IMG/VR virus record: IMGVR_UViG_2541047798_000010
Direction: 5' to 3' (one strand)
DNA length: 43,320 bases
Origin: a virus
Taxonomy: Duplodnaviria > Heunggongvirae > Uroviricota > Caudoviricetes
The first letter of the stretch is position 1. Each line of letters starts with the position of its first letter. Below, piece after piece: positions 3,387 to 38,123 of the stretch. The position numbers and the translations under genes were made by a program. The notes under the pieces were generated by a model. The model saw only the letters and a program-made list of their open reading frames with translations. It did no database searches and was not told the DNA's origin.

Positions 3387-6300
3387 AACGTTCTTCCAGA
3401 GACTGAATCCGCTCTTTTATCTTATCCATTTCTCTGCGCTGCCATGCTGCCTCGATATAGAATAAGAGATCAGGCCTGACCCCCCATCTAGATCCTGCTG
3501 GCGTTATTTCAACGCGCTCAATGATGTCTTCCATTACCATCACTGGATTATCATCCTCATCAACAATGATGCTCCCGTCATTATCAGTCAGCGGCATTTC
3601 CCTTTGGCCAGTAATGACGTCATCATATACTGCGGGATAATCGTCATAGCAAAGAAAGGCATAGCGGCATGTTGTGCTTTCTTCTTCCATGAGTCCGTGA
3701 GAAATAAGAACATCACGAAGTTGCTGCGCGATTACACCATGATGTATCCTCGCCCCTTCTTCCCCCTTTATAGCGACAGCGTTCAGCCATTTATAAGCGA
3801 TATACCTGACGTCACCCCAGGCATCCAGCAATGCTTCGTCAGGAGAGACCGGCTCTGTCTTTAATGTTCCGTCACTGGTAACCACAGGATTGGAGCCAAG
3901 ATAAACTGTCGAGAACCTGTTTCCCGGACCACCAAGAGCATTTACATTATCAAGATAAGGTTTAACATCTCCGTTCTCAAAAAGATGTTCGAGTGCGTTA
4001 TATACCGCGCGACGTGGAGTACTGCTTCCGGAACCATGCAACGTTATCATTGCACCATCTGCTGAAGACGTTGTTTCACCGCCGCTAACGATTAATCTCT
4101 GAGCGGTAACATCATCAGACGGTACTTTCTTCGCAATAATGGCGTAATTACCCTCAAGTTTGACTTCCGCGCGAACTTGTCCTGATGTACCTGCATGGAC
4201 AGTCAGTGACTGGACGGCAACATCATCTGTGAAATCAACGGGTACAGGAACCGTCCTCACGCCTGACGTCGACATAAAAGTAGGAAGCGTTCTGTTAGGA
4301 GTGGCTCCGTAGACAAAATCCCTTGAAACAAATTCTTCCTGTTTGATTTTCACCCTGAAACAATATAAATCAGCCGGGTGACCATCGTGAACATAAGGAT
4401 ATTTTCTGTTGTTATCCCCTATGCTCCATGGGTTTAGAAAGTCTTCCCCACCGAAAATGTAGTACAGCCAGTTGTCTTTGATACAAACTGAACCAACACC
4501 AACCGCAGAGTTAACTATTCCGCCCTGATAAATCTGATCAGTAACATTAACCCACTCTACATTATCCAGACTCCACTCATTGACGTTAACTCTGGTCATA
4601 AATGTTCTTGGATAATTTCCTGCATAACGGTTATCAGGTTCTCCTCCTTCCCACTCACCAAATGCGCGCTCACTGCCAAAAATAATCAGCTCATCGCCAA
4701 CTTTGGCAAAAGGAAGGTTTGAGTGATGAACATTATTTGGGAAGCGAAGAGAATTCCATGATGTACCTAAATCAGAGCTTCTGTGCAATGAACTACCGGG
4801 TTGAGTACTTAATGTCCCCCTGGTCGTCAGATACAGAATGCCATCATAATATTTTACACATGGCTCAGATGCATTCGCCTCATATTCTGCAGGTATGCGT
4901 CTGCGAACAAAGCTACCAGGAGAACCGAAAGCATCAGAGAAATAGAGTATCCCAAGCTCGCGTGGACCAATATCACCATTATGGTAGCCAACAGCAAAAC
5001 TGTTATCGCTAATCGTCGCAAAACTGTGAATCTCAGTAACAGGAGTGCTTCCGTCAACAAAAGAAGGAATAGTTCCAAGACTGGTTTTTCTCCATGGTGA
5101 CGAGTGAAATGATGTGCCAAAACTCCAGTATCTACCCTCGTTATTCTGATCCACATCCTGAGTATTTTGCGTCGTAACTGTAAAAGTATTTTTATCAATA
5201 ACAGTAGTCACCGTCATATTCCCGGTAACACCTGTAACACCAGAGTTTGAGAAGTTGACAAAATCACCAGCAAATAATCCGTGATCAGTAATGCGAATAT
5301 AAGCGACTTGCTGATTTGCTGCTTTCGTTATACCACCATAAACGCGAAGGCTGCGACTCATTGGGCGATCCCACAACTCTGCAACCTGCAGTTTATTTCC
5401 TCTCACGGTCCGCGTCTCAATTACAGCAAAAAGGCGATTTCTGACAACCCCCATACTCATGCAGTGATAGTTAACTGTGGGATAGTTTTCATGTAAATCT
5501 GTAAGCCATTCCGGCGTTGTCCAGGTCTTCCCGTCATCTCCTGAGCGAACCCATGCAACATGGAGGTTATTTACACCATGGCGGTCTCCAGCCATAAAAG
5601 GCGCATAGATGACATTGTCATATACAAACGTTTTATCCTGCGTCCAGGCGTTGTACCACGGTGTATCTGTAATTTTAAATAACTCTCCCTGGATAAAATC
5701 TTCAGAAGCATAAAAAAGAGGCTGGCCCGGTATTCTCTCAAATAAAAAACGAGCATTTTTAAATCGACTGACATCCGGAAGAGTTGATACTTTAAAAGTA
5801 AGCCCTAATCCGTCAATTTTATAACCTGGAGATGAGGCTTCAAGGCACGCGCTTATTGCAGTGGAGTCGTCATTTATACCATCACCAACAGCTCCAAAAT
5901 CTTTGGGGCTAATAGCATCACGCATTTTATCCTGGAACGTTCGGTACACAGCCCCAGAACCATACTGAATAAACCAACCAAAACCACCAACAACCCCGGC
6001 GATTGCAGCATCAACATAATTACGCATTGAGCGATTATTTACAGCGTCCTGCTCAAATGATGGATCTGCAAGGTTAGAAATTTTGTTTTGCTTTGCATCG
6101 TAATATTTTGCAAGCAGAGAGGGCTTCATCAATGCACGTCTGAACCACCCAAAACATTGCTGGATCAGCATCGTCAGGTAGTCAAAGGCATCTTCATGCA
6201 CTTCGGGGAAAAATTTTCCCTGATTGCGAAGGTCTGTCTCCTGCACTACATCAAGCACACGATCTATCGTAATTCGCCATCCAGTAGCAAGCGGAGACGG

Positions 6301-6608: not shown

Positions 6609-6623
6609 TTACCTTTCGGGTAA
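6609..6623. promoter_or_regulatory. Operator-type palindrome TTACC-N5-GGTAA (copy upstream of LexA-controlled gene, in divergent region with tailspike)
   Basis: ATTACCTTTCGGGTAAT; perfect match to the motif found at OR and OL. Confidence 0.6.
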
Positions 6624-6660
6624 TTTGCAAAACGTGCTGGATAGCAAACAAATTATTTGT

Positions 6661-6680
6661 TACTGTATAAACATACAGTT
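6661..6680. promoter_or_regulatory. LexA (SOS) box
   Basis: TACTGTATAAACATACAGTT: CTGT-N8-ACAG core intact, 17 of 20 positions match TACTGTATATATATACAGTA; 20 bp upstream of ATG 6700. Confidence 0.75.
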
Positions 6681-6699
6681 ATTGCATGGAGAAGATAAG

Positions 6700-6957
6700 A
6701 TGCAGCAGTATCACTATCCACTGGAAGACGGATTTACCGAAAGGATTCACACGCCGGGAGGCGTCAGGTCACTGGTGGAGGGATCGCACTTGATGAAATT
6801 ACTCCGGGATCTCGATAAGGATGGATTTAATGTCGATGGCCCACTTGCCGAACTGACTGCACTGATTAACTACGTCACCAGCTCACAGATGTCTATGCAG
6901 GATCTACAAACACATCTCGACTATTGTGCCGAACAATTACGAAAACAAACCAGATAA
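6700..6957 (+). CDS. Small standalone antirepressor-effector-domain protein (homolog of the C-terminal domain of the two Ant paralogs); SOS-controlled candidate antirepressor
   Basis: 85 aa from ATG 6700 (RBS GGAG 8 nt upstream); aligns with Ant C-terminus (IH-P-GV...LM-LL...DG-V-G-AELT...DLQTH-Y); LexA box immediately upstream. Confidence 0.65.
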   Translation: MQQYHYPLEDGFTERIHTPGGVRSLVEGSHLMKLLRDLDKDGFNVDGPLAELTALINYVTSSQMSMQDLQTHLDYCAEQLRKQTR

Positions 6958-6988
6958 GATTTGAAATTACCAATAGGAGTGCTTATAT

Positions 6989-7003
6989 TTACCTTTGCGG
7001 TAA
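6989..7003. promoter_or_regulatory. Operator-type palindrome TTACC-N5-GGTAA sitting in the loop of a hairpin (AGGAGTGC/GCACTCCT) at the outer edge of the left ant arm
   Basis: TTACCTTTGCGGTAA; mirrored by the copy at 10028. Confidence 0.6.
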
Positions 7004-7094
7004 ATTTACATCGCACTCCTCTTGTGCCATAGTAATCGGGCACTGGCAAAATCCAGTGCCGGGATTGGCGTCCCGGGTTACTAAGTGGCGCATA

Positions 7095-7117
7095 CCACGC
7101 CAGACGTGGTTTTTTTA
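7095..7117 (+). terminator. Rho-independent terminator inside the ant1 leader
   Basis: Stem CCACG/CGTGG followed by TTTTTTTAT; preceded by two further stem-loops (GGCACTGG/CCAGTGCC and CCGGGA/TCCCGG). Confidence 0.55.
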
Positions 7118-7272
7118 TGCGTTAAGCACAGCTATATCCGAATTATGGTGGGCTGGGCAGGGGTCCGAAAGGACGCCGGTACCACTTAGGCCGGTACGCC
7201 AACCTTGTCCAGTTCACCACCAGTAATTGGCGTTGCGGTGGTGATTAAAATCACTAAGTGGAGATAACCACC

Positions 7273-7983
7273 ATGGCTAATGCTCAAACTGCCATCTTCA
7301 AATTTGAATCTGTTAACCCTATCCGTTCCATCATTATCGATGGCCAACCATGGTTTGTAGCCCAAGACGTTTGTAGTGCGCTGCGTATCCAAAACGTCAC
7401 CCAAGCACTTGAAAAACTGGATGATGATGAAAGGTCTATGTTCAACATAGGGCATGAACATCGTGCAATTTTTGACAGCCGAGTAAAAGAGATCAACATT
7501 ATCTCCGAGTCAGGCCTCTACACACTGATCCTCCGCTGCCGCGACGCAGTGACACCAGGCACTATCCCCTACCGCTTTCGTAAATGGGTTACAGGTGAGG
7601 TTCTTCCTCAGATCCGCCGCACCGGAAGTTACATTAAAAACTCGCTCCCGCAGGAAGAACGCATAAAGATGGTTGCCGACCAGGTAGCCAACGCCACAGC
7701 ATCAGCAGTGATGCAGGCAATGAAGATAGAGAACAAAACCTACAGCGCCCCGCTGAAGCCCGGCTACCGCAGCCTGATTCATTCGCCGTCTGGTGTTCTC
7801 GGCCTGACGGAGAACTCACTGCTGATGAATCTGCTGAACCAGTTACAGGAAGACGGGCACGATGTATCGGGCGCGGCGGCGGAGCTGACCACCATGTTTT
7901 GCTACATCGTTGGTGTGAGCAAATGCCTGCGTGATATCCAGACGCACGCGGAGTACATCAACGACAAGGCTGGGTTCTTCTGA
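7273..7983 (+). CDS. Antirepressor paralog 1 (Bro-N-like N-terminal domain plus shared C-terminal effector domain)
   Basis: 236 aa from ATG 7273 (RBS GGAG); N-terminal IFKFESVNPIRSIIIDGQPWFVAQDVCSAL is Bro-N/KilA-N-like; C-terminal half nearly identical to paralog 2. Confidence 0.8.
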   Translation: MANAQTAIFKFESVNPIRSIIIDGQPWFVAQDVCSALRIQNVTQALEKLDDDERSMFNIGHEHRAIFDSRVKEINIISESGLYTLILRCRDAVTPGTIPYRFRKWVTGEVLPQIRRTGSYIKNSLPQEERIKMVADQVANATASAVMQAMKIENKTYSAPLKPGYRSLIHSPSGVLGLTENSLLMNLLNQLQEDGHDVSGAAAELTTMFCYIVGVSKCLRDIQTHAEYINDKAGFF

Positions 7984-8010
7984 CGGGCGGCGGCACAGGG
8001 ATGTGCCTTT
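7585..8010. repeat. Left arm of a near-identical inverted repeat (about 425 bp) covering the 3-prime half of ant1 and about 25 bp beyond its stop
   Basis: Reverse complement of 9045-9470 matches with only scattered substitutions; mirrored antisense ORFs 7634-7819 and 9232-9417 have near-identical translations. Confidence 0.8.
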
Positions 8011-8199: not shown

Positions 8200-8739
8200 G
8201 TGTTAAGTGAAGAAATGCAATTTGCCATGGCTGTGGCTCAAATCGTAAGTGCAGTCGCGGTTTCGCTTGGCTTGTTCATAGCTATCGCTACTATTATTTA
8301 TAATGTAAATACAGCGAGAAAAGTACACACTTCAGTATTCCTTGGTGAAAGCAGGTTTGATGTAGATTATAAGAAAGGCCTATCTACTATGCGCCGCATT
8401 CACGAGTCGAACAAATCATTCCGCTCTTATATGTATCCAAGCAATGGGCAGGCTGATCTTACGGATGAAGAAAAGATAGAGAAGAGAGAAATAATTTACT
8501 GTCTAGGTTTCTACGAACGCATGGCTGTGAGCGTGAAGCGGAAAACTTATGATGAGACCATGATTAAGGAAGTATTTTACAGCTCCGTTGTAAATAACTA
8601 TCAGATTGCGCTACCTCTTATACAAGCTATTAGAGAAAAAGAAAACATAAACACATATTTTAAAGAATATGAATGGTTAGCCACACGATGGAAGGATTGT
8701 CCATTGAAGGACAAATCCCCGTGGTACAAGTTTTGGTAA
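8200..8739 (+). CDS. Membrane-anchored protein of unknown function; AT-rich cargo between the inverted ant genes (candidate superinfection-exclusion or abortive-infection protein)
   Basis: 179-aa ORF with GTG start at 8200 (GGAG 7 nt upstream) or ATG 8215; single N-terminal TM helix; markedly AT-rich; 3 of the first 8 Arg codons are AGA/AGG; followed by a strong terminator. Confidence 0.6.
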   Translation: MLSEEMQFAMAVAQIVSAVAVSLGLFIAIATIIYNVNTARKVHTSVFLGESRFDVDYKKGLSTMRRIHESNKSFRSYMYPSNGQADLTDEEKIEKREIIYCLGFYERMAVSVKRKTYDETMIKEVFYSSVVNNYQIALPLIQAIREKENINTYFKEYEWLATRWKDCPLKDKSPWYKFW

Positions 8740-9030: not shown

Positions 9031-9044
9031 ATAGTTTCGTTTTG

Positions 9045-9470
9045 CACATCCCTGTGCCGCCGTTCTGTCAGAAGAACCCTGCTTTGTCGTTGATATACTC
9101 CGCGTGGGTCTGGATATCACGCAGGCATTTGCTCACACCGACGATGTAGCAGAACATGGTGGTCAGCTCCGCCGCCGCGCCCGATACGTCGTGCCCGTCG
9201 TCCTGTAACTGGTTCAGCAGATTCATCAGCAGTGAGTTCTCCGTCAGGCCGAGAACACCAGACGGAGAATGAATCAGGCTGCGGTAGCCGGGCTTCAGCG
9301 GGGCACTGTAGATTTTGTTCTCTATCTTCATCGCCTGCATTACTGCTGACGCCGTGGCGTTGGCTACCTGGTCGGCAACCATCTTTATGCGTTCTTCCTG
9401 CGGGAGCGAGTTTTTAATGTAACTTCCGGTGCGGCGGATCTGAGGAAGTACTTCGCCTGTAACCCATTCA
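9045..9470. repeat. Right arm of the near-identical inverted repeat (3-prime half of ant2)
   Basis: Reverse complement matches 7585-8010. Confidence 0.8.
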
Positions 9471-9760
9471 AGAAATCTGAATGCTCTCGTTCCCTCAGTC
9501 ATTGCCTCTTTGCAACGCAGAATAAGGATGTAGAGACCTGATTCTGAAACGATGGATAGTTCTTGTATTCCACCAGGGGTCTGTATTGAATACAGCCCCT
9601 TTTTGTTCCAGCCTTTTTTATCAAGTTTTCTCGCTTGTGTAACATCAATATTCAAAGCATTGCACACATCTTTGGTGACAAACCAAGGTTCTCCGTCAAT
9701 CATGAACATACGGATCTGGCAGGATGACTCAAAGGAAAAGATGGAAGGTTTGGTATTCAT
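9068..9760 (-). CDS. Antirepressor paralog 2 (Bro-N-like N-terminal domain plus shared C-terminal effector domain), inverted relative to paralog 1
   Basis: 230 aa from ATG 9760 (RBS AGGTGA); N-terminal domain diverged from paralog 1, C-terminal about 130 aa near-identical. Confidence 0.8.
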   Translation of the reverse strand: MNTKPSIFSFESSCQIRMFMIDGEPWFVTKDVCNALNIDVTQARKLDKKGWNKKGLYSIQTPGGIQELSIVSESGLYILILRCKEAMTEGTRAFRFLEWVTGEVLPQIRRTGSYIKNSLPQEERIKMVADQVANATASAVMQAMKIENKIYSAPLKPGYRSLIHSPSGVLGLTENSLLMNLLNQLQDDGHDVSGAAAELTTMFCYIVGVSKCLRDIQTHAEYINDKAGFF

Positions 9761-10027
9761 GGCGATCACCTTTGTAGTTAGGTTAATCACCACCGCTGAG
9801 ACCAATCAGATGGTGGTGAACTGTGCAGAGTTGGTCTTACCGGCTACAAAGGAACCCGGCGCACCTTTCGGTGCCCCCACACAGCCCACCATAGAATAGG
9901 TGCGCTTTACACATAAAAAAACCGCTTATGCGGCATATGTGCCTCTGTAGTAATCCGGGAGACCAATCCCGGCACTGGATTTTGCCAGTGCCTGATTACT
10001 ATGGCACAAGAGGAGTGCGATGTAAAT

Positions 10028-10042
10028 TTACCGCAAAGGTAA
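10028..10042. promoter_or_regulatory. Operator-type palindrome TTACC-N5-GGTAA at the outer edge of the right ant arm
   Basis: TTACCGCAAAGGTAA; mirror of the 6989 copy, with the same downstream stem-loops and terminator in inverted orientation. Confidence 0.6.
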
Positions 10043-10065
10043 TGATAAACGCTAAGAAATATTAA

Positions 10066-10189: not shown

Positions 10190-10543
10190 GTGCCATTCCA
10201 CGGCGCAGAGCTTTATGTTGTCAATCATAACGGCGAACCATACACCCCAATGAAACCTATCGTTGAAGGCATGGGTATGGATTGGGCTTCACAGTTTACG
10301 AAAATGAAGCAGCGGTTTAAAACCTGCATTGTGAAAATCACAATGCAGCTTCCTGGGGATGAACAGCGCCGTGAGATTATTTGTTTGGCACTTCGCAAAC
10401 TTGCTGGCTGGTTGCAAACCATCAGCCCTAACAAAGTCCGCCCTGAAATCCGCGAAAGTATTGAAACATCAACCGTATCGATATCGACACGGTTGATTAT
10501 GACGGTAACTTATTTCCGTGTGTCCTATTTCTCCCGCCACTAA
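10190..10543 (+). pseudogene. Possible gene remnant; ORF with GTG start and no RBS
   Basis: 117-aa track ORF; normal GC content, no ribosome-binding site, ends directly against the minus-strand AT-rich gene. Confidence 0.25.
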
Positions 10544-27201: not shown

Positions 27202-27216
27202 TTACCTTTCAGGTAA
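27202..27216. promoter_or_regulatory. Operator-type palindrome TTACC-N5-GGTAA upstream of the late operon
   Basis: TTACCTTTCAGGTAA; TTGACA hexamer at 27180-27185. Confidence 0.6.
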
Positions 27217-29736: not shown

Positions 29737-30332
29737 TGATTGCCATCCTGACGTTCTTTCAGTCTCTTCCTGGCTGCCGCTATGCGATCAGCAATTGTCA
29801 CATTCACATTAACATCCAGGCGTTCTTTGAATGCGTTGACGTCGACGTGCTTACCAATCAGTTCGAGGTTCTTCACCTTGTCAGGCCATTTAATTTTTTT
29901 GAGGATGCCAACCAGCTCTTTCTCGTCTCCACGGCCTTCGAACATGTCGGCCAGTTCGAAACCTGTCAGGTACTGCCGCCAGACCTTAGGCCATTCCGAG
30001 ACCGGCTTGATGCTCATATCGTCGTTGAGAATGTCAATCACGTCCATCTGGTCGATCTCCACCAGGCGCATGAGAACGTAATCAGCACTGACGCGCATTC
30101 GTTTGTTGCGCTCCTCCATCAACTCGGCAATCCGTTTTTGAATGCGTTCATCGCGCATCATGACACTGGCTTTAACTGCCGCTGTATTTGGGGAGAATCC
30201 TGCGTTAATCGCAGCCTGAGTCTGGTTTTCAGGCGTTTGGATGTATGACTGGCAATAAGCCTCCTGCATTGCTGTTAGTGGCTTAAATTGCGTTGATTTG
30301 CGTTTATAGGTTTTAGGTTCAGCAGGCATCAT
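29733..30332 (-). CDS. terS: Terminase small subunit
   Basis: Start chosen at ATG 30332 (199 aa); the track's longer TTG-start ORF translates the operator-containing leader into an implausible TITTTVTITTVV N-terminus. Confidence 0.6.
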   Translation of the reverse strand: MMPAEPKTYKRKSTQFKPLTAMQEAYCQSYIQTPENQTQAAINAGFSPNTAAVKASVMMRDERIQKRIAELMEERNKRMRVSADYVLMRLVEIDQMDVIDILNDDMSIKPVSEWPKVWRQYLTGFELADMFEGRGDEKELVGILKKIKWPDKVKNLELIGKHVDVNAFKERLDVNVNVTIADRIAAARKRLKERQDGNQ

Positions 30333-30349
30333 AACCACCGTGGTAATAG

Positions 30350-30364
30350 TTACCGTTGTGGTAA
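30350..30364. promoter_or_regulatory. Operator-type palindrome TTACC-N5-GGTAA 18 bp upstream of terS
   Basis: TTACCGTTGTGGTAA, between a minus-strand terminator and the terS start. Confidence 0.6.
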
Positions 30365-34966: not shown

Positions 34967-34981
34967 TTACCCCTGAGGTAA
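34967..34981. promoter_or_regulatory. Operator-type palindrome TTACC-N5-GGTAA overlapping the RBS of the 34610-34963 gene
   Basis: TTACCCCTGAGGTAA, 4 bp from the start codon. Confidence 0.55.
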
Positions 34982-35028
34982 TTAAAAACCACATAAGACA
35001 CGAAATCAATAGATTTTAGAATATTTTA

Positions 35029-35043
35029 TTACCCAACAGGTAA
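35029..35043. promoter_or_regulatory. Operator-type palindrome TTACC-N5-GGTAA, second copy in the intergenic region downstream of the P-like gene
   Basis: TTACCCAACAGGTAA; a promoter-like TTGATT-N17-TTTAAT (minus strand) lies between the two sites. Confidence 0.55.
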
Positions 35044-37286: not shown

Positions 37287-37349
37287 TCACCCATAAGGTA
37301 ACAAAAATCAAGGATAGTTACCTATGAGGTGCATTTACCTGTTGGGTAA
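37287..37349. promoter_or_regulatory. OR-type operator region: three operator-type sites between the cro-like and repressor genes
   Basis: TCACCCATAAGGTAA (37287-37301), TTACCTATGAGGTGC (37318-37332), TTACCTGTTGGGTAA (37335-37349); minus-strand promoter-like TTGATT-N17-GAATAT with the first site inside the spacer. Confidence 0.7.
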
Positions 37350-37404: not shown

Positions 37405-37989
37405 ATGAAAAGTATCCAGGACGTCCGCAGGCAAAATCTCAACGACTTGATCGACCGTGAATTCAATGGTGTTCAGACGCGGATGGCAGAAAAACTTGGA
37501 ACTCAGGCAAATCTGGTAAACCGCTGGGCTCTTGGCAAGAAGGTTATCGGCGACCAGGTTGCACGAAAAATTGAAGCTGCCGCCAATAAACCCCGTAACT
37601 GGCTTGATATTGATCGTTCGCTTTCTCAGGAGGGTTTTCAGCCTGTCGGCCCGAGCGATATAGGTCAGTTGGCGGCTCACAACCTGGAACGCTGGATGAG
37701 CGAAAGCCGCGACCTTTCAACACAGGGAAAACTTCACCGCGCATCCGGCGTCGCCCAGGTGACAATCAGCCGCCTGTTAAACAATGAGGTCAGCGTTTCC
37801 ATTTCCACTCTGGAGAATGTTGCATCCGCATTCGGGCGTCACGGATATGAACTACTGATTCACCCGCACGACCCTGCGACTATCAACTATGACCGCTCAC
37901 GCTACGCATTGTTACCCGAAACCGAGAAAGCAAAGATCGAAAGTTACATTGAATTTGTCATCAACCAGAACGAAAAAAGCAAACAATAA
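37405..37989 (+). CDS. Prophage repressor with two tandem HTH (XRE-type) domains and no LexA-like autocleavage (S24) domain
   Basis: 194 aa; HTH-like segments near aa 20-60 and 95-150; divergent from cro-like gene; own terminator downstream. Confidence 0.7.
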   Translation: MKSIQDVRRQNLNDLIDREFNGVQTRMAEKLGTQANLVNRWALGKKVIGDQVARKIEAAANKPRNWLDIDRSLSQEGFQPVGPSDIGQLAAHNLERWMSESRDLSTQGKLHRASGVAQVTISRLLNNEVSVSISTLENVASAFGRHGYELLIHPHDPATINYDRSRYALLPETEKAKIESYIEFVINQNEKSKQ

Positions 37990-38046: not shown

Positions 38047-38123
38047 TTACCTTACGGGTAATTTTTTTAACTCATATCTATTGACACTAAACCAAATAAG
38101 CATAATTATTACCTCAACGGTAA
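38047..38123. promoter_or_regulatory. OL-type region: two perfect operator-type sites flanking a sigma70-like promoter for the plus-strand recombination operon
   Basis: TTACCTTACGGGTAA (38047-38061); -35 TTGACA (38081-38086), 17-bp spacer, -10 AATTAT; TTACCTCAACGGTAA (38109-38123) starts right after the -10. Confidence 0.65.

Follow-up and report, generated by a model that had tools for sequence, protein, structure and literature searches.

Two antirepressor genes of an epsilon15/phiV10-like phage are each preceded by a predicted P1-type c4 RNA switch with an IsrK-like leader

Background

In phages P1 and P7 the antirepressor gene ant is repressed at its ribosome-binding site (RBS) by the antisense RNA c4, as has been shown experimentally. 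The P1 record annotates, in the immI region, Oc4, P2c4, P1c4, a1, b1, c4, a2 and b2, and then icd and ant, and the c4 RNA of P1 is excised from a precursor by RNase P. Antirepressor control in phage N15, by a small processed RNA, is similar to control by the CI RNA of satellite phage P4. Differences in the a and b sequences set immunity specificity, as between P1 and P7 (PMC12197685). Here we describe the leaders of two antirepressor genes, ant1 and ant2, in a stretch of 43,320 nucleotides (nt) from a virus of the Caudoviricetes (IMG/VR record IMGVR_UViG_2541047798_000010), the whole of which is called the window; they occupy positions 6975-7272 before ant1 (module 1, plus strand) and the mirror-image region before ant2 (module 2, minus strand).

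A second system with which these leaders can be compared is the isrK locus of the Salmonella prophage Gifsy-1. There, part of the transcripts end at the IsrK terminator, the read-through mRNA is translationally silent, and the short RNA supplied in trans activates the read-through mRNA (PMC4825925). The helix that keeps the read-through RNA silent is defined by two pairs of compensatory mutations, G28-C162 and G31-C159, and the RNA STnc1160 is lost when the promoter PisrK is deleted (PMC4825925); lysogens of Gifsy-1 contain IsrK as well as STnc1160 in abundance (PMC7067206). The Gifsy-1 IsrK paper (Hershko-Shalev et al. 2016) calls seqA of phage P4 a structural homolog of IsrK and makes no mention of P1 c4 (PMC4825925), a 2025 review lists IsrK and P1 c4 as separate systems (PMC12197685), and a study of APSE recorded both RNAs beside a BRO gene.

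Results

C4 and isrK families in both leaders

Two Rfam families were found in each leader, in an identical order: isrK (RF01394), then the C4 antisense RNA (RF01695), then the ant gene. The isrK matches score 67.7 bits in module 1 and 74.7 bits in module 2, for a gathering score of 50, and the C4 matches 66.0 and 78.6 bits, for a gathering score of 45, with E-values from 1e-11 to 1e-16 (coordinates in Table 1). Because the C4 and isrK scores are above the Rfam gathering scores, the likeness to P1 c4 exceeds mere analogy, and both ant leaders are predicted to carry a bona fide C4-family RNA together with an IsrK-family terminated leader. A third model, c4-a1b1 (RF03163, "a1, b1 targets of C4"), overlaps the 5' half of the isrK match. 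By annotation (Bro-N domain and PHROG family), the controlled genes are antirepressors.

The c4 RNAs of module 1 and module 2, each folded alone, reach -43.6 kcal/mol and adopt the family structure, a long closing stem around two hairpins, which is backed by covariation and present in both copies. In module 1 the closing stem joins AUGGUGG 7145-7151 with CACCACC 7215-7221 and is the largest structure of the region; by analogy with P1, the mature c4 RNA of this module would extend from about 7147 to 7221.

A preliminary description of this region, made from the letters alone, had proposed a structured leader before ant1, and folding agrees with it: the transcribed leader and its mirror fold with z = -5.0 and -5.2, and none of 200 shuffles reaches an equally stable fold. 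The two stem-loops and the terminator that it placed before ant1 are present, and so is, in both copies, its pairing of CACCACC with GGTGGTG near the RBS; in module 1 the hairpin of CACCACC 7215-7221 with GGTGGTGA 7237-7244 has an energy of -16.8 kcal/mol. The RNA-based control that it suggested, analogous to P1 c4, is supported by the family scores and by an order of elements that is that of P1 immI and Gifsy-1. Its mirrored layout before ant2 extends to the hairpins, the terminator and the CACCACC pair, while the stem around the operator is missing there. What it overlooked is the c4 gene between the terminator and the RBS, with the contacts made by a' and b'; this gene is the central element of the switch.

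Antisense contacts and their covariation

In both copies a' and b', the two exposed segments of c4, are exact complements of a1 and a2 and of b1 and b2, respectively. The cognate duplexes have energies of -9.6 and -12.6 kcal/mol in module 1 and of -8.9 and -12.0 kcal/mol in module 2; non-cognate duplexes are weaker (-4.5 to -9.2 kcal/mol) and none of them falls on an a2 or b2 site. The real antisense contacts, as predicted from these complementarities, are those of a' with a1 and a2 and of b' with b1 and b2. CACCACC forms the 3' side of the stem that closes c4. Its pairing with GGUGGUG, which is not itself the antisense interaction, gives a conserved alternative hairpin with a2 in the loop, in competition with the closing stem.

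Modules 1 and 2 differ from each other by compensatory changes at a1, a', a2, b1, b' and b2. As both the a and the b sequences differ, each c4 should control its own ant gene alone, and we would expect the two modules to be orthogonal in the manner of P1 and P7. No further c4 target, that is, no other a site beside a b site, was found within the window, where single 7- or 8-mers of the a and b sites occur at chance frequency.

To place these contacts in a comparative frame, we used a pattern derived from the leader, which fixed the loop of hairpin 1 and the TTGG of a1 but left the last three a bases and all of b unconstrained; it retrieved 120 viral contigs, corresponding to about 100 unique leaders. 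In 98 of 100 unique leaders, searched from a1, a' exactly complements a1 and an identical a2 is found 3' of c4. Covariation was evaluated in an alignment of 44 diverse sequences, P1 and Gifsy-1 included, with RNAalifold for structure. Here the a1:a' and a':a2 helices are each 99% paired, with compensatory changes at four of the seven positions; this covariation is reached by none of 500 shuffles, and no slid register comes near it. Four a-types were found among the related leaders, together with 29 distinct b' loops, and 36 a-by-b combinations were seen. The b' loops are complementary to their own b1 over a mean run of 8.5 nt, against 4.7 nt for non-cognate partners, and to their own b2, which lies on the Shine-Dalgarno sequence, over 9.0 nt, against 6.1 nt.

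The same alignment supports the structures around these contacts. Compensatory changes are present in 24 of the 41 consensus pairs of the c4 stems and the two leader hairpins, and the hairpin between the c4 3' strand and the sequence after a2 is 93% paired, with compensatory changes in five of eight pairs (covarying examples are GCUACCACC/GGUGGUAGC and GUCCGCC/GGCGGAC). The downstream ATG stands at a fixed alignment column in 44 of 44 sequences, and a terminator with a T-run is present in 100 of 100 leaders, mostly with seven U and with modest stems (mean -6.8 kcal/mol).

Some other features of the leaders should be recorded. Positions 7086-7093 can pair with 7117-7124 (GCGCAUA/UAUGCGU), flanking terminator 1 and its U-tract, and the counterpart in copy 2 joins the region 9945-9938 with the sequence after the U-tract (GCACAUA/UAUGUGU). 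Such pairing, available to read-through RNA only, would wrap the terminator in a longer helix and partly mask b1; the stem co-varies in several relatives, with cognate runs of 6.6 nt that are barely better than the non-cognate 5.7 nt. The loop of leader hairpin 1, GCAAAAUC (7046-7053; 9985-9978), does not vary between the Rfam consensus sequences of isrK and c4-a1b1 and is nearly identical in its P1 counterpart, GCAAAUUC; no complementary partner for it was found in c4 or in the ant leader. Among the relatives, contig L080 carries two leader modules in tandem on the same strand (5936-5959 and 7149-7171), not inverted, one of them having no recognisable a' downstream. In a subclass of leaders (L010, L016, L017, L042 and similar) about 40 extra nt lie between the terminator and c4, which begins near +208 instead of the usual +169.

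Leader promoter and operator

Across 106 related leaders, A at -11, T at -7 and G at +1 are each conserved in 100% and T at -35 in 98%, and these positions define what is predicted to be a sigma-70 leader promoter. The predicted transcription start of module 1 is G7040, where the isrK model begins, and that of module 2 is 9991. The module 1 promoter aligns with the P1 promoter P1c4/P51b, whose -10 sequence TATAGT fits the family consensus YATAGT and puts the start on the 5'-most base of the isrK-aligned hairpin of P1. No separate c4 promoter was predicted by the promoter scan between the terminator and c4, a spacer that is unconserved. Copy 1, unlike copy 2, also has a promoter-like TTGAAA-17-TATATT (6961-6989) that overlaps the operator.

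The pattern TTACC-N5-GGTAA occurs at 13 sites in the window, where 0.71 would be expected, and two pairs of these sites flank a repressor candidate with an HTH_3 domain and without a peptidase domain (37405-37989); the label "operator" is reasonable because of both this excess and this arrangement. Operator 1 lies at -53 to -35 relative to G7040, outside the leader transcript, and in most related leaders the operator sequence is found at -50 to -36. Binding at this site may repress the leader promoter. Further operators are located at 27202, 30332-30364, 34967-35043, 37287-37349 and 38047-38123; the dispersed sites are found 5' of the small terminase gene and beside a lambda-P-like replication gene, and they also flank the HTH_3 candidate. 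This scatter is consistent with a dispersed regulon like that of P1 C1 and with induction by antirepressors.

It had also been suggested that the operator sits in a hairpin loop of the leader. A stem does exist in copy 1, where the operator is bracketed by the inverted repeat GGAGTGC 6976-6982 / GCACTCC 7013-7019 and folds at -20.6 kcal/mol; however, it lies upstream of the start at 7040 and is therefore not in the leader RNA made from that promoter. The stem is confined to copy 1 because copy 2 has other sequence in place of the 5' arm; there the surroundings of the operator fold at just -7.1 kcal/mol. The operator hairpin was consequently rejected as an RNA element, given the absent 5' arm in copy 2 and the position upstream of the conserved start.

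Discussion

The proposed switch

We consider it very probable, with a rough probability of 85%, that each ant gene is preceded by a c4 RNA switch of the P1 immI type with an IsrK-like decoy leader. Family membership, structure, complementarities with their covariation, the conserved promoter and the terminator are established at the level of the sequence. In the proposed mechanism, a repressor-guarded sigma-70 promoter would start transcription at G7040 or at 9991, and most transcripts would probably end at the intrinsic terminator, giving an IsrK-like RNA of about 77 nt that carries a1 in a loop, and b1. Transcripts that read through would contain the c4 RNA (about 75 nt, presumably excised as in P1) and then the ant mRNA. 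The c4 RNA would expose b' in a hairpin loop and a' in a junction, and these would pair with b2 and a2 on the ant mRNA; since b2 overlaps the Shine-Dalgarno sequence, c4 bound at a2 and b2 would occlude it and block ribosome entry, and no antirepressor would be made. The short leader, with its identical sites a1 and b1, could titrate c4 as a decoy, a burst of leader transcription would then switch ant on, and the terminator would set the balance between decoy and antisense RNA. For this phage we infer c4 processing, the translational block, the decoy role and orthogonality by analogy with the described systems.

Several observations weigh against this reading. Every functional step for this phage rests on homology, and the c4-a1b1 model scores only 44.1 bits in module 1 and 38.4 bits in module 2, under its gathering score of 46.7. 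In module 1 b2, 12 nt 5' of the ant1 start codon (7273-7275), overlaps just the first two bases of the GGAG Shine-Dalgarno sequence. The operator abuts the -35 of the leader promoter instead of overlapping it, which makes repression of this promoter uncertain. Full orthogonality is not guaranteed either, since the b' loop of c4-1 can pair with the conserved GGUGGUGA of module 2 at -9.2 kcal/mol. The comparative counts overstate the number of independent events because the search pattern fixes the hairpin 1 loop and TTGG and because many of the loci are closely related. Finally, P1 has icd and translational coupling, whereas icd is absent here, and Gifsy-1 needs the orf45 frame for coupling, whereas here a stop codon ends this frame after 14 codons in module 1 and after 28 in module 2; as it closes early, the published Gifsy-1 model cannot apply literally. 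No icd-like open reading frame (ORF) lies between c4 and ant in either module, so that b2 sits on the Shine-Dalgarno sequence of ant itself, and with icd absent and the orf45 frame closed, control must act directly on ant's own RBS.

Alternative explanations

The terminator between promoter and gene had been taken, in the preliminary description, to imply antitermination as one option. A phage factor like Q or N that permits read-through to ant would account for this position, but no nut- or qut-like element was identified, and in lacZ fusions the homologous Gifsy-1 terminator was read through with no added factor (PMC4825925). As that terminator is simply leaky, no protein antitermination is needed; moreover, RNA-RNA pairing accounts for all other conserved features of the leader, and we regard a protein factor as very improbable. 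A similarly low probability attaches to coupling in the style of Gifsy-1, in which "orf45", read from the AUGG of c4, must be translated to open the ant RBS. This coupling has been demonstrated in Gifsy-1 (PMC4825925) and the AUG is conserved, but in this window it was rejected on account of early stop codons, which lie 83 nt before ant1 and 45 nt before ant2; the frame reaches the downstream ATG in about 19 of 44 relatives, and in P1 too it stops after 14 codons.

More weight, although we still think it unlikely, can be given to an attenuation like that of P4 CI, in which c4 would bind a1 and b1 on the nascent leader and favour the terminator, control being transcriptional and not a block of the RBS. 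It would fit with b1 ending 5 nt before the terminator stem and with a GGCG...CGCC hairpin over the 3' end of b1 and the 5' arm and loop of the terminator, which recurs in relatives with a weak signal (mean -6.0 kcal/mol, against -3.5 when the upstream part is shuffled); the authors of the IsrK work raised the same idea for STnc1160 (PMC4825925). However, the terminator itself is more stable (mean -8.6 kcal/mol), the alternative hairpin in most cases takes in only 2 nt of the terminator arm, and constitutive STnc1160 did not lower the IsrK effect in Gifsy-1 (PMC4825925). Attenuation also leaves unexplained why b2 is always on the Shine-Dalgarno sequence, at a fixed distance from an invariant ATG. 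The two modes of control, attenuation and translational block, could coexist. Least probable of all, in our view, is that one or both modules are decaying duplicates without function: although the region is an inverted duplication with an adjoining antirepressor fragment, in each module the ORF, promoter and terminator are intact, the a and b sites within a module match throughout even though these are the very sites at which the two modules diverge, and the pair is found also in other prophages (L075; E. coli A_5).

Implications

The c4 switch with its IsrK-like leader can be extended into a joint reading, which we offer tentatively and hold to be somewhat doubtful: that, in a c4 switch of the P1 type, the IsrK leader serves as the decoy arm, that a and b form a two-part address code, and that two addresses in one genome serve anti-immunity. 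If this were true, a leaky terminator would set the ratio of decoy to antisense RNA from one promoter, and at least four a-types and 29 b-types, in 36 combinations, would provide dozens of mutually orthogonal immunity specificities. Two addresses on two antirepressors that are nearly alike in their C-terminal ~120 residues would mean that a resident prophage needs both c4 types for silencing, an anti-immunity strategy that would extend the heteroimmunity of P1 and P7.

Recognising the c4/IsrK switch predicts which prophages are mutually immune at the antirepressor level. A similar leader is detectable in 256 deposited phage genomes, more than 160 of them Stx-converting, usually with no feature annotated over it, and such leaders suggest that RNA adds a level of control to the induction of toxin-carrying prophages. 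The identification also joins the P1 c4 and Salmonella IsrK literatures, which have approached the same device from opposite sides; its practical value lies in annotation and synthesis.

The ant genes and their surroundings

Ant1 and Ant2 are 75% identical, with just two differences in the C-terminal ~120 residues. The 3' halves of their genes form an inverted repeat of 504 nt (7481-7984 / 9067-9570; 89% complementary), beyond which lies a perfect inverted repeat of 19 nt (7988-8006 / 9044-9062). The two genes converge on a cargo segment of ~1.1 kb with a DUF4760 gene (8200-8739), a position occupied in relatives by a YafO toxin gene, and this segment could be invertible or exchangeable by recombination. 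The closest phages are HEMP4, TL-2011b and phiV10, which are epsilon15-like; phiV10 has a single module, with its terminator annotated. Further examples of the double-module layout are found in viral contig L075 and in other E. coli prophages, whose cargo differs.

Two neighbouring ORFs are related to antirepressors. The product of ORF 6700-6957 (85 amino acids (aa), PHROG 450) shares homology with the last ~85 residues of both Ant proteins, and in front of the ORF lie a canonical LexA box, CTGTATAAACATACAG (6663-6678), and an operator at 6609-6623; from its sequence, 6609-6957 appears to be an independent antirepressor module under SOS control, located upstream of those controlled by RNA. ORF 10190-10543, divergent from the ant2 promoter, has a P22_AR_N domain (1e-31), and the annotation of a relative describes it as the N-terminal domain of an antirepressor, truncated; it may be the remnant of a third ant gene, of the P22 type.

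Table 1. Predicted elements of the two ant modules, with coordinates in the window
Feature	Position	Strand	Evidence or remark
Module 1
Operator 1, ATTTACC-TTTGC-GGTAAAT	6987..7005		Pattern excess; abuts -35 of leader promoter
Leader promoter 1 (-35 TTTACA 7005-7010, TG, -10 CATAGT 7028-7033)	7005..7033	+	Promoter scan
IsrK-type leader RNA 1	7040..7116	+	Rfam isrK, hairpin covariation, terminator scan
Leader 1 hairpin 1	7040-7059	+	Folding
Leader 1 hairpin 2	7060-7075	+	Folding; a1 in loop
a1 UUGGCGU (loop of hairpin 2)	7065-7071	+	Complement of a'
b1 CUAAGUGG	7081-7088	+	Complement of b'
Intrinsic terminator 1, ACCACG-CCAGA-CGTGGT + T7	7094-7116	+	Terminator scan; stem -7.6 kcal/mol
c4 gene 1	7141..7224	+	Rfam C4 66 bits; folding
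b' CCACUUAG (loop of second internal c4 hairpin)	7182-7189	+	Complement of b1/b2
a' ACGCCAA (single-stranded junction after b' hairpin)	7196-7202	+	Complement of a1/a2
ant1 mRNA target region	7227..7275	+	Exact complements of a', b'
a2 UUGGCGU	7227-7233	+	Complement of a'
Conserved GGTGGTGA (RNA GGUGGUGA)	7237-7244	+	Pairs with CACCACC 7215-7221
b2 CUAAGUGG	7254-7261	+	Overlaps Shine-Dalgarno GGAG 7260-7263
ant1, Bro-N antirepressor gene, 236 aa	7273..7983	+	Pfam Bro-N 9.6e-20; PHROG 130 anti-repressor Ant 8e-57
Module 2
Operator 2	10026..10044		TTACC-N5-GGTAA pattern
Leader promoter 2 (-35 10026-10021, -10 10003-9998)	9998..10026	-	Promoter scan and conservation
IsrK-type leader RNA 2	9915..9991	-	Rfam isrK 74.7 bits
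Leader 2 hairpins 1 and 2	9991-9972, 9971-9956	-	Folding
a1 UUGGUCU	9966-9960	-	Complement of a'
b1 CUACAGAGG	9950-9942	-	Complement of b'
Terminator 2	9934-9915	-	Terminator scan
c4 gene 2	9809..9896	-	Rfam C4 78.6 bits; folds -43.6 kcal/mol
b' CCUUUGUAG	9852-9844	-	Complement of b1/b2
a' AGACCAA	9837-9831	-	Complement of a1/a2
CACCACC	9818-9812	-	Pairs with GGTGGTGA
ant2 mRNA target region	9758..9805	-	Exact complements of a', b'
a2 UUGGUCU	9805-9799	-	Complement of a'
GGTGGTGA (RNA GGUGGUGA)	9794-9787	-	Pairs with CACCACC
b2 CUACAAAGG	9777-9769	-	Overlaps Shine-Dalgarno AAGGUGA
ant2 start codon	9760-9758	-	
ant2, Bro-N antirepressor gene, 230 aa	9068..9760	-	Bro-N, PHROG anti-repressor Ant

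Comparison with known systems

The functional analogy with P4, whose CI RNA acts with seqA and seqC, concerns a small RNA processed from a leader and complementary sites upstream and downstream on the same transcript; CI differs in that it makes transcription terminate prematurely. The Rfam scans of the leaders gave no match to a P4-type RNA family, for which no dedicated test of membership was made.

With Gifsy-1 the correspondence is much more detailed. The order isrK, orf45/STnc1160, anrP is the same, with an isrK score of 79 bits and a C4 score of 69 bits, and the C4 match coincides exactly with the published "orf45/STnc1160", which separates isrK from anrP, the antirepressor gene; the start codon of orf45 is the AUG of the AUGG that opens c4. 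The a1, a' and a2 sequences (UUGGCGU/ACGCCAA) are identical to those of module 1, and the pairs G28-C162 and G31-C159 map base for base onto a1 (nt 26-32) and a' (nt 158-164). The b sequences differ from those found here, and the Gifsy-1 locus lies downstream of Q in a lambdoid prophage, whereas ours is beside tail-fibre genes; no isrJ was found in the window by the Rfam scan.

The immI region of P1 has its C1 operator and promoters, a1, b1, a terminator-like hairpin, c4, a2, b2 and the RBS in the same order. As here, a2 is a few nt past c4 and b2 is at the ribosome-binding site, the C4 score is 68.8 bits (66 and 78.6 in our modules), and the 3' strand of c4 pairs with the sequence after a2 (CCUGCCACC/GGUAGCAGG). 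The isrK model finds in P1 the terminator-like hairpin between b1 and c4, but its score there, 35 bits, is below the threshold that both of our leaders exceed. P1 encodes a pair of proteins, Ant1 and Ant2, where each module described here encodes a single Bro-N protein, and Oc4 overlaps a separate upstream promoter, where here the symmetric TTACC-N5-GGTAA abuts the -35 of the leader promoter. The phage described here is, moreover, an epsilon15/phiV10-like podovirus, and it has two modules per genome.

The region 6975-7272 as a whole and its mirror are explained by the c4/IsrK switch, without invoking anything new: the switch is a known phage device, a P1-type c4 with an IsrK-type leader, correctly re-discovered here. 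In this phage the only new twist is the presence of two copies of the switch with differing RNA "addresses". The comparison goes slightly past the literature consulted in identifying IsrK with the a1/b1 arm of the c4 system, in the free combination of a and b, and in the two addresses per genome.

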